A stretch of DNA of 64,000 nucleotides, taken from assembly GCF_003334405.1 (NCBI RefSeq), contig NZ_QOWM01000003.1. The stretch is one strand, 5' to 3'. The stretch's first letter is position 1; each line of letters begins with the position of its first letter. The notes under the pieces are model-generated. The model had not been told where the DNA came from. It did no database searches and worked only from the letters and a program-made list of their open reading frames with translations. A program made the translations under genes and the position numbers. The DNA comes from Escherichia coli. Its GTDB lineage: Bacteria; Pseudomonadota; Gammaproteobacteria; Enterobacterales; Enterobacteriaceae. This document shows positions 30,933-31,754 of this stretch, piece after piece.

Positions 30933-31754
30933 ATGATGCACAGGTTGAATCTCAATGGCTATGAACCCGACCGACACCATGAAGCCGCGGTCGCATTTTG
31001 TATTCACGCCGGAACGGATGAGTTAACCAGTCCTGTACATCAGCACCGCAAAGGACAGCTGATACTGGCGCTACATGGTGCAATTACCTGTACGGTGGAA
31101 AATGCTTTGTGGATGGTGCCGCCACAATATGCGGTTTGGATACCGGGCGGGGTGGAACATAGCAATCAAGTAACAGCTAATGCTGAACTCTGTTTTCTGT
31201 TTATCGAACCCAGCGCAGTGACAATGCCGACAACATGTTGCACATTGAAAATATCGCCCTTATGCCGGGAATTAATTTTAACCCTGGCAAACAGGACGAC
31301 GACTCAGCGTGCTGAGCCAATGACCCGCAGATTAATTCAGGTCCTGTTTGATGAACTCCCTCAGCAGCCACAACAACAGCTGCACCTGCCCGTTTCTTCT
31401 CATCCTAAAATCCGCACGATGGTGGAGATGATGGCGAAAGGGCCTGTCGAGTGGGGGGCATTGGGGCAATGGGCTGGCTTTTTTGCGATGAGTGAACGCA
31501 ATCTTGCCCGACTGATAGTAAAAGAGACGGGGTTGAGTTTTCGCCAGTGGCGTCAGCAGTTACAGCTGATTATGGCGCTTCAGGGATTAGTGAAAGGCGA
31601 TACTGTACAGAAAGTTGCTCATACGCTGGGGTATGATTCAACAACGGCCTTTATTACTATGTTTAAGAAAGGCCTGGGGCAAACGCCAGGCCGATATATT
31701 GCGAGATTAACTACTGTTTCCCCACAATCAGCGAAACCAGACCCGCGGCAATAA
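30933..31754 (+). CDS. yeaM: AraC-family transcriptional regulator YeaM
   Basis: ORF track 273 aa; C-terminal AraC-type HTH; divergent from yeaN. Confidence 0.9.

Follow-up and report, generated by a model that had tools for sequence, protein, structure and literature searches.

Background

Escherichia coli has about 58 convergent overlaps between coding sequences, which are fitted by a model of stop codon mutation and among which (123:132) is the most frequent phase (PMC2174442), and overlaps originate through 3' extension (PMC2478687). The terminator of one gene can also be embedded in its partner, as is the case for 23 of 116 convergently overlapping genes of E. coli (PMC2174442). At the level of RNA, neighboring convergent genes with overlapping transcripts have been collected as convergent excludons (Sanmartin et al. 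2025, ExcludonFinder, PMC12288877); of 165 such pairs detected in half or more of 58 MG1655 RNA-seq samples, 146 have overlapping terminators, and yeaL-nimR is one of the pairs (Table 1 of that paper). NimR is an AraC-family repressor of nimT whose single target is the nimR/nimT spacer (PMC5934670). YeaL is a DUF441 inner-membrane protein according to RefSeq.

The genes nimR (yeaM) and yeaL are a convergent overlapping pair, two bona fide coding genes that share their 3' ends. The overlap is already known, being annotated in E. coli K-12 RefSeq and its transcript overlap already catalogued. It is a real but ordinary tail-to-tail overlap, which probably arose by drift of one stop codon.

Organization of the nimR-yeaL junction

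The window, the whole stretch of 64,000 nucleotides of E. coli contig NZ_QOWM01000003.1 that was analyzed, is colinear with the reverse complement of positions 1842509-1906508 of E. coli K-12 MG1655 (NC_000913.3), from which it differs by 15 SNPs and 0 indels; subtracting a window position from 1906509 gives the coordinate in MG1655. The MG1655 RefSeq annotation places yeaL at 1874352-1874798 and nimR at 1874755-1875576, with 1874755-1874798 as their common part. An identical overlap is annotated in all five further E. coli genomes that were sampled (97.2-99.9% identity), and both the YeaL protein and the NimR tail are identical across those five. The earlier note, made from the sequence, had named the two genes yeaM and yeaL and given their overlap as 44 bp, and this is borne out by the ORF list, the sequence and RefSeq (Table 1), just as the 4-bp overlap that it had pointed out between rlmA and mntP agrees with the sequence and RefSeq. 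The mis-set stop that it had entertained does not apply, because both stop codons are unambiguous and fixed by the reading frame.

Table 1. Features of the nimR-yeaL junction and of other tight convergent gene pairs, in window positions unless stated otherwise
Feature	Position	Strand	Remarks
nimR (yeaM) CDS	30933..31754	+	273 aa; ORF list, RefSeq, Pfam
NimR HTH_18 coding region	31470..31703	+	Pfam scan; ends 8 nt before the overlap
U-rich tract UUUCUUAAAC	31661..31670	-	directly 3' of the hairpin; antisense to nimR Phe-Lys-Lys codons
Hairpin GGCCUGG-N8-CCAGGCC	31671..31692	-	terminator scan; candidate intrinsic terminator stem of yeaL
Convergent CDS overlap nimR/yeaL	31711..31754	both	44 bp
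yeaL CDS	31711..32157	-	148 aa; ORF list, RefSeq
nimR codon 265, CAA (Gln)	31725..31727	+	stop (TAA/TGA) here in 28 genomes with 17-bp overlap
Current nimR stop, TAA	31752..31754	+	antisense to yeaL cTT Att (Leu-Ile)
C-rich, G-poor tract	31755..31920	+	immediately 3' of the nimR stop; antisense to yeaL
rlmA/mntP stop-to-stop overlap, TTAA	255..258	both	4 bp
pdeD/yoaE	~6480-6484 (MG1655 1900025/1900029)		convergent, gap 3 bp
yeaO/yoaF	~29231-29253 (MG1655 1877256/1877278)		convergent, gap 21 bp
yoaI end/yeaK end	32431/32432		convergent, gap 0 bp

The shared 44 bp code for the C-terminus of YeaL and, on the other strand, for the 13 residues of the NimR tail. They read CT ACT GTT TCC CCA CAA TCA GCG AAA CCA GAC CCG CGG CAA TAA in the nimR frame, and the 3' end of yeaL (reverse complement) reads ...CTT ATT GCC GCG GGT CTG GTT TCG CTG ATT GTG GGG AAA CAG TAG. 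The phase is (123:132), with position 1 of the yeaL codon opposite nimR position 1, position 2 opposite 3, and position 3 opposite 2. NimR (273 residues) contains the Pfam domains AraC_binding (residues 22-147) and HTH_18 (residues 180-257); since HTH_18 ends at residue 257, the overlap codes just for the part of NimR that follows the domain. Extension to the following in-frame nimR stop would make the overlap 263 bp.

When the YeaL protein was held fixed and its synonymous codons were permuted, the length of read-through in the nimR frame had a median of 140 nt (5-95%: 20-263) and was at least 44 nt in 68% of permutations. The length of the nimR-yeaL overlap is within chance expectation, and the rlmA-mntP overlap is likewise not beyond chance.

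Position of the nimR stop codon in Enterobacteriaceae

A YeaL scan with one genome per species yielded 80 Enterobacteriaceae loci, in which the YeaL orthologues are 81-100% identical. A convergent nimR adjoins yeaL in 58 of these, and its stop, taken as the first one reached in translation from the conserved AFITMF motif, lies between -127 and +45 bp when counted from the stop of yeaL. The most frequent position is +17 bp (28 loci, from Klebsiella, Enterobacter, Raoultella, Kluyvera, Leclercia, Lelliottia and others, the group also containing 'E. coli E69', C. koseri and one C. youngae). The +44 bp state of E. coli is found in 13 Citrobacter loci, and the other positions are -5 bp (five loci, Buttiauxella), +20 bp (three loci), +6 bp (two loci), and -127, -122, -4, -1, 0, +21 and +45 bp (one locus each). 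Overlaps of 119-281 bp obtained for Enterobacter, Kluyvera, Leclercia and others were rejected, the tblastn alignments having run through in-frame stops; the true overlap in these is 17 bp.

The passage between the 17-bp and the 44-bp state can be read from a single codon of each gene. The first base of nimR codon 265 pairs with position 1 of yeaL codon 145, and the nimR stop of the 17-bp state is antisense to yeaL xTT/xTC plus the A of Ile145 (ATT/ATC). E. coli and the 44-bp Citrobacter genomes have Val145 (GTG/GTT; GTG in E. coli), and it is because yeaL codon 145 specifies Val, not Ile, that the nimR stop reads CAA. A single A-to-G change would thus convert the ancestral-type 17-bp state into the 44-bp state, substituting Val for Ile in YeaL and Gln for the stop in nimR, after which NimR would have been extended by 9 codons to the next in-frame stop, its present TAA. 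From parsimony, applied without a tree, we infer that the 44-bp state is derived from the 17-bp state.

The pair resembles the convergent pairs that have been attributed to stop codon mutation (Rogozin 2002; Lillo & Krakauer 2007, PMC2174442; Palleja 2008, PMC2478687) in that both genes are real and have their 3' ends in common, the phase is the commonest one, the length is below 60 bp, the orthologues end earlier with a shorter C-terminus, and the extension, which is poorly conserved, runs up to the next in-frame stop; the TTAA of rlmA-mntP, too, is among the four opposed-stop tetramers of that class. The one difference is that the stop of nimR was apparently lost through a conservative Ile-to-Val substitution in the partner yeaL and not through a silent change.

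The 22 loci without nimR beside yeaL include those of E. albertii, E. whittamii, Kosakonia and Phytobacter. The gene is also missing next to yeaL in two Escherichia sp. (loci L005-L008 together with E. albertii and E. whittamii), and Escherichia sp. MOD1-EC7003 (L003) has a nimR remnant only. When the region matching 30800-32300 was inspected in E. coli strains H1 (NZ_CM136176.1) and H12 (NZ_CM125651.1), nimR was found to be split by IS1A in one strain, and in the other the query matched with its first 307 bases, most of nimR and yeaL seemingly being gone. nimR looks dispensable. The best nimR match of Citrobacter koseri (L034) covers residues 17-176 at 55% identity, and this nimR may be decayed; the motif of the nimR 3' end, a near-intact hairpin and the T-run are still present beside yeaL. 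Several loci of Kosakonia, Phytobacter and relatives that lack nimR (L035, L037-L043 and L045) have a different frame that is apparently convergent up to the yeaL stop (2947), with a conserved ...CTGCACAGCAGGTAATAGAC about 40 nt downstream of the yeaL stop; yeaL may have tight convergent neighbors in other genera too.

Constraint on the shared bases

In the 14 genomes that have the 44-bp overlap, no variation occurs in the final 14 residues of YeaL, and the variable sites of the overlap fall on yeaL third positions (10 of 14), apart from a single first position (of 13); none of the 14 second positions varies. Because each third position of yeaL corresponds to a second position in nimR, 9 of the 13 columns of the NimR tail are variable. 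Mean pairwise identity is 0.72 for the tail, compared with 0.925 in the HTH and 0.89 in the N-terminal part of NimR, and the entropy of yeaL third positions is 1.27 bits in the last 14 codons versus 1.13-1.33 bits elsewhere (73 loci). NimR coding adds no detectable constraint on the overlap. The NimR tail is a passenger, and its sequence follows from the conserved hydrophobic segment at the C-terminus of YeaL.

Dual-coding constraint, by which the NimR tail would be functional and the 44 bp selected in both frames, is very improbable on this evidence and was rejected because of the codon positions at which variation occurs. The tail is indeed identical in the five E. coli genomes compared, but this is expected at 97-99.9% DNA identity; the 44-bp state is common to E. 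coli and 13 Citrobacter genomes, but across these the tail varies while YeaL does not, and every variable site except one is a yeaL wobble position. Synonymous diversity of yeaL is not reduced within the overlap, the tail lies outside the Pfam domains, and NimR is 9 residues shorter in most genera. We give almost no credence to an annotation artefact, in which one ORF end would be wrong or one gene would be a pseudogene. Many long convergent overlaps in databases are misannotations by 3' extension (PMC2478687), but the 60-bp range that the same study flags as suspect is not reached at 44 bp, and NimR has been studied experimentally as a regulator of 273 aa (PMC5934670). An artefact would need a frameshift from sequencing error near 31700-31754, against the agreement of five independent E. 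coli genomes. Misannotation was rejected on account of the unambiguous stops, fixed by frame, and the conservation of both genes, which are kept full-length across genera. The overlap is genuine, and YeaL determines the shared sequence.

A candidate terminator of yeaL within nimR

The terminator scan placed a hairpin with a 7-bp stem (6 G-C pairs) and an 8-nt loop on the yeaL strand, starting 18 nt past the yeaL stop. Together with the tract that follows it, it has the structure of an intrinsic terminator, a G+C-rich stem-loop and then a U-tract shortly past the stop codon, and it sits in the nimR codons for G-L-G-Q-T-P-G-R, a conserved AraC-family motif. It is the sole terminator-like site in 30500-32600 with both strands scanned, shuffled sequences giving a mean of 2.9 in 2.1 kb, and its predicted folding energy of -14.1 kcal/mol corresponds to z = -1.5, with 14 of 200 shuffles folding as well. 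A single hit does not exceed what shuffling yields, the stability of the hairpin is unremarkable by itself, and on its own the site is weak evidence.

In Escherichia, Citrobacter and Salmonella the hairpin folds at -14 to -21 kcal/mol in most genomes, and the U-tract is always next to it. Conservation of the hairpin was not detected family-wide, where 76% of cells pair versus 73% in shuffles and RNAalifold returned no consensus structure. In 22 genomes of Escherichia, Citrobacter and Salmonella, the four four-fold degenerate nimR sites within the stem have entropies of 0-0.27 bits, below all 62 other four-fold sites of nimR (median 1.44 bits; Mann-Whitney p = 4.5e-4); the two in the loop have 1.69 and 1.93 bits. 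The hairpin had been chosen by the scan before conservation was looked at, so that the test is not circular. Three departures from the stem occur in the clade; each is a mismatch in RNA of the yeaL strand, and two form G-U pairs in RNA of the nimR strand. We read this pattern of substitution as a stem under selection, most simply as a candidate intrinsic terminator of yeaL, in which case yeaL transcripts most likely end at a hairpin and U-tract embedded in the coding sequence of nimR. In yeaL itself (31711..32157), 15 of 79 four-fold sites have entropies of at most 0.27 bits in the same 22 genomes, versus 4 of 66 in nimR; these near-invariant yeaL sites could reflect codon bias, RNA structure or antisense constraints.

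Ju et al. (2019) reportedly described intrinsic terminators that work in both directions at the junctions of convergent genes. The nimR-yeaL hairpin is similarly palindromic and located at the junction of convergent genes, but it is upstream of the nimR stop, and the plus strand continues after it with GATATATTGCG. Lying ahead of the stop of nimR and lacking a U-tract on that strand, it cannot be the terminator of nimR. Closer to it are the partner-embedded terminators (PMC2174442), with which the yeaL candidate shares a G+C-rich hairpin and a U-tract just past the stop and within the codons of the neighbor; it differs from them in being conserved in Escherichia, Citrobacter and Salmonella only, and in being written in the AraC-family motif of nimR with the wobble positions fixed.

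Transcription across the junction

From its inspection of the overlap, the earlier note had concluded that there is no room for terminators and that convergent transcription could cause mutual interference. The absence of a terminator is not supported, given the candidate hairpin and U-tract inside nimR, whereas the overlap of convergent transcripts is on record (PMC12288877), and mutual interference may occur. If yeaL transcripts end in the U-tract (at about 31663-31668) and nimR is transcribed to 31754, the two mRNAs would overlap by ~90 nt or more. The supplementary Term-seq/TRS data of Adams 2021 and TRS 2023 contain no entry for the 3' end of either yeaL or nimR.

For nimR, the scan of 30500-32600 detected no intrinsic terminator on the plus strand, and no hairpin with a T-run follows its stop. 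The tract after the stop has a C/G ratio of 1.4-2.0 in 80-nt windows over 31720-31919, a composition that makes it a candidate Rho-utilization region; nimR transcripts would most likely end by Rho in this C-rich RNA, which is antisense to yeaL, or else continue by read-through. Two sub-threshold matches, JUMPstart and permuted tmRNA, came out of the Rfam scan of 30500-32700, both treated as chance; the JUMPstart match (31922..31951, plus strand, antisense within yeaL) reached 20.9 bits (E = 0.19), where the gathering score is 35. Near yeaL there is one sigma-70-like promoter match only, TCGACA-16-TAGCAT (32322..32349, minus strand); it is ~165 nt upstream of the yeaL start and overlaps the start of yoaI on the opposite strand.

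It is unlikely, though a possibility of some weight, that the hairpin is not a terminator of yeaL at all, and that it acts on nimR-sense mRNA, where it could be a stabilizer, a pause site or an influence on translation, or that constraint on codons or protein explains its conservation. The stem is a perfect palindrome that folds on both strands, two of the three departures in the clade keep pairing (as G-U) on the nimR strand only, the U-tract is a by-product of conserved Phe-Lys-Lys codons, and the hairpin is degenerate outside the clade even though yeaL is present there. On the nimR strand, however, the hairpin is followed by GAUAUAUUGCG with no U-tract and lies ~60 nt before the nimR stop, in RNA that is translated, whereas on the yeaL strand it comes 18 nt past the stop, with UUUCUU or UUUUUU immediately after it. 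Constraint on codons is at odds with the Gly, Leu and Pro four-fold sites elsewhere in nimR, which vary freely, and with the retention of Pro CCA in 21 of the 22 genomes. CCA is not known to be the preferred Pro codon in enterics. With a yeaL terminator as the favored reading of the hairpin, it can be asked whether the arrangement is a selected excludon, with the interference suggested by the earlier note as its function, the overlap and the embedded terminator being kept because the antisense mRNAs make nimR and yeaL mutually antagonistic, which would come about by collision of RNA polymerases or by RNase III cleavage of the duplex. This is quite unlikely. Like the other convergent excludons (PMC12288877), yeaL-nimR consists of neighboring convergent genes with overlapping transcripts, and its candidate terminator is inside the transcription unit of the other gene, which that study takes as a stronger sign of relevance; the stem is conserved at synonymous sites, and 58 of 80 genomes retain the two genes end to end. 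The nimR-yeaL pair differs in that its overlap reaches beyond the 3' UTRs into the coding sequences, which makes transcript overlap trivial; any two transcribed genes with overlapping coding sequences would score in this way, and the listing is near-automatic, adds little and is no demonstration of regulation. Furthermore, the length of the overlap is labile (-127 to +45 bp), 22 of 80 genomes lack nimR next to yeaL, and some E. coli have lost the gene or carry an IS1 within it while keeping yeaL intact. We know of no functional link between NimR, the repressor of a nitroimidazole pump, and the DUF441 protein YeaL, and this, too, weighs against an excludon. The full combination, a yeaL terminator selected in the wobble positions of nimR in Escherichia, Citrobacter and Salmonella that makes, with the ~90-nt overlap, a working excludon of mutual dampening, has a slender chance of being correct. 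We infer that the overlap has no selected regulatory role.

Other tight convergent pairs in the window

Convergent gene pairs number 11 in the window, of which two overlap and three more have gaps of 0, 3 and 21 bp, so that 5 of the 11 overlap or are at most 21 bp apart (Table 1). In the TTAA of rlmA-mntP, which is also annotated in K-12 RefSeq, 256-258 is the rlmA stop (plus strand) and the complement of 255-257 is the mntP stop; this is one of four tetramers that carry two opposed stop codons (PMC2174442). The terminator scan found no terminator around rlmA-mntP, and the pair is absent from the convergent excludon list of PMC12288877, which does have the neighbors yeaK-yoaI, yeaO-yoaF and pdeD-yoaE. 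The mntP ORF (255..875) would encode 206 aa from an upstream ATG, and RefSeq gives 188 aa (567 nt; MG1655 1905688-1906254), with the annotated start 18 codons inside the longer ORF.

Conclusions

The significance of the nimR-yeaL overlap is small, the class to which it belongs being well described; what it adds is the Ile145Val route to stop loss, a passenger tail, and a probable yeaL terminator in the wobble positions of nimR. The proposed stop loss is a worked example of how a conservative change in one gene, Ile145Val of YeaL, can lengthen the protein of its antisense neighbor. If the excludon were a working one, it would be a first hint concerning regulation of the uncharacterized YeaL. 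A terminator located in synonymous positions of a neighbor's DNA-binding motif, as the hairpin within nimR appears to be, would caution against assuming that overlapping genes lack terminators.
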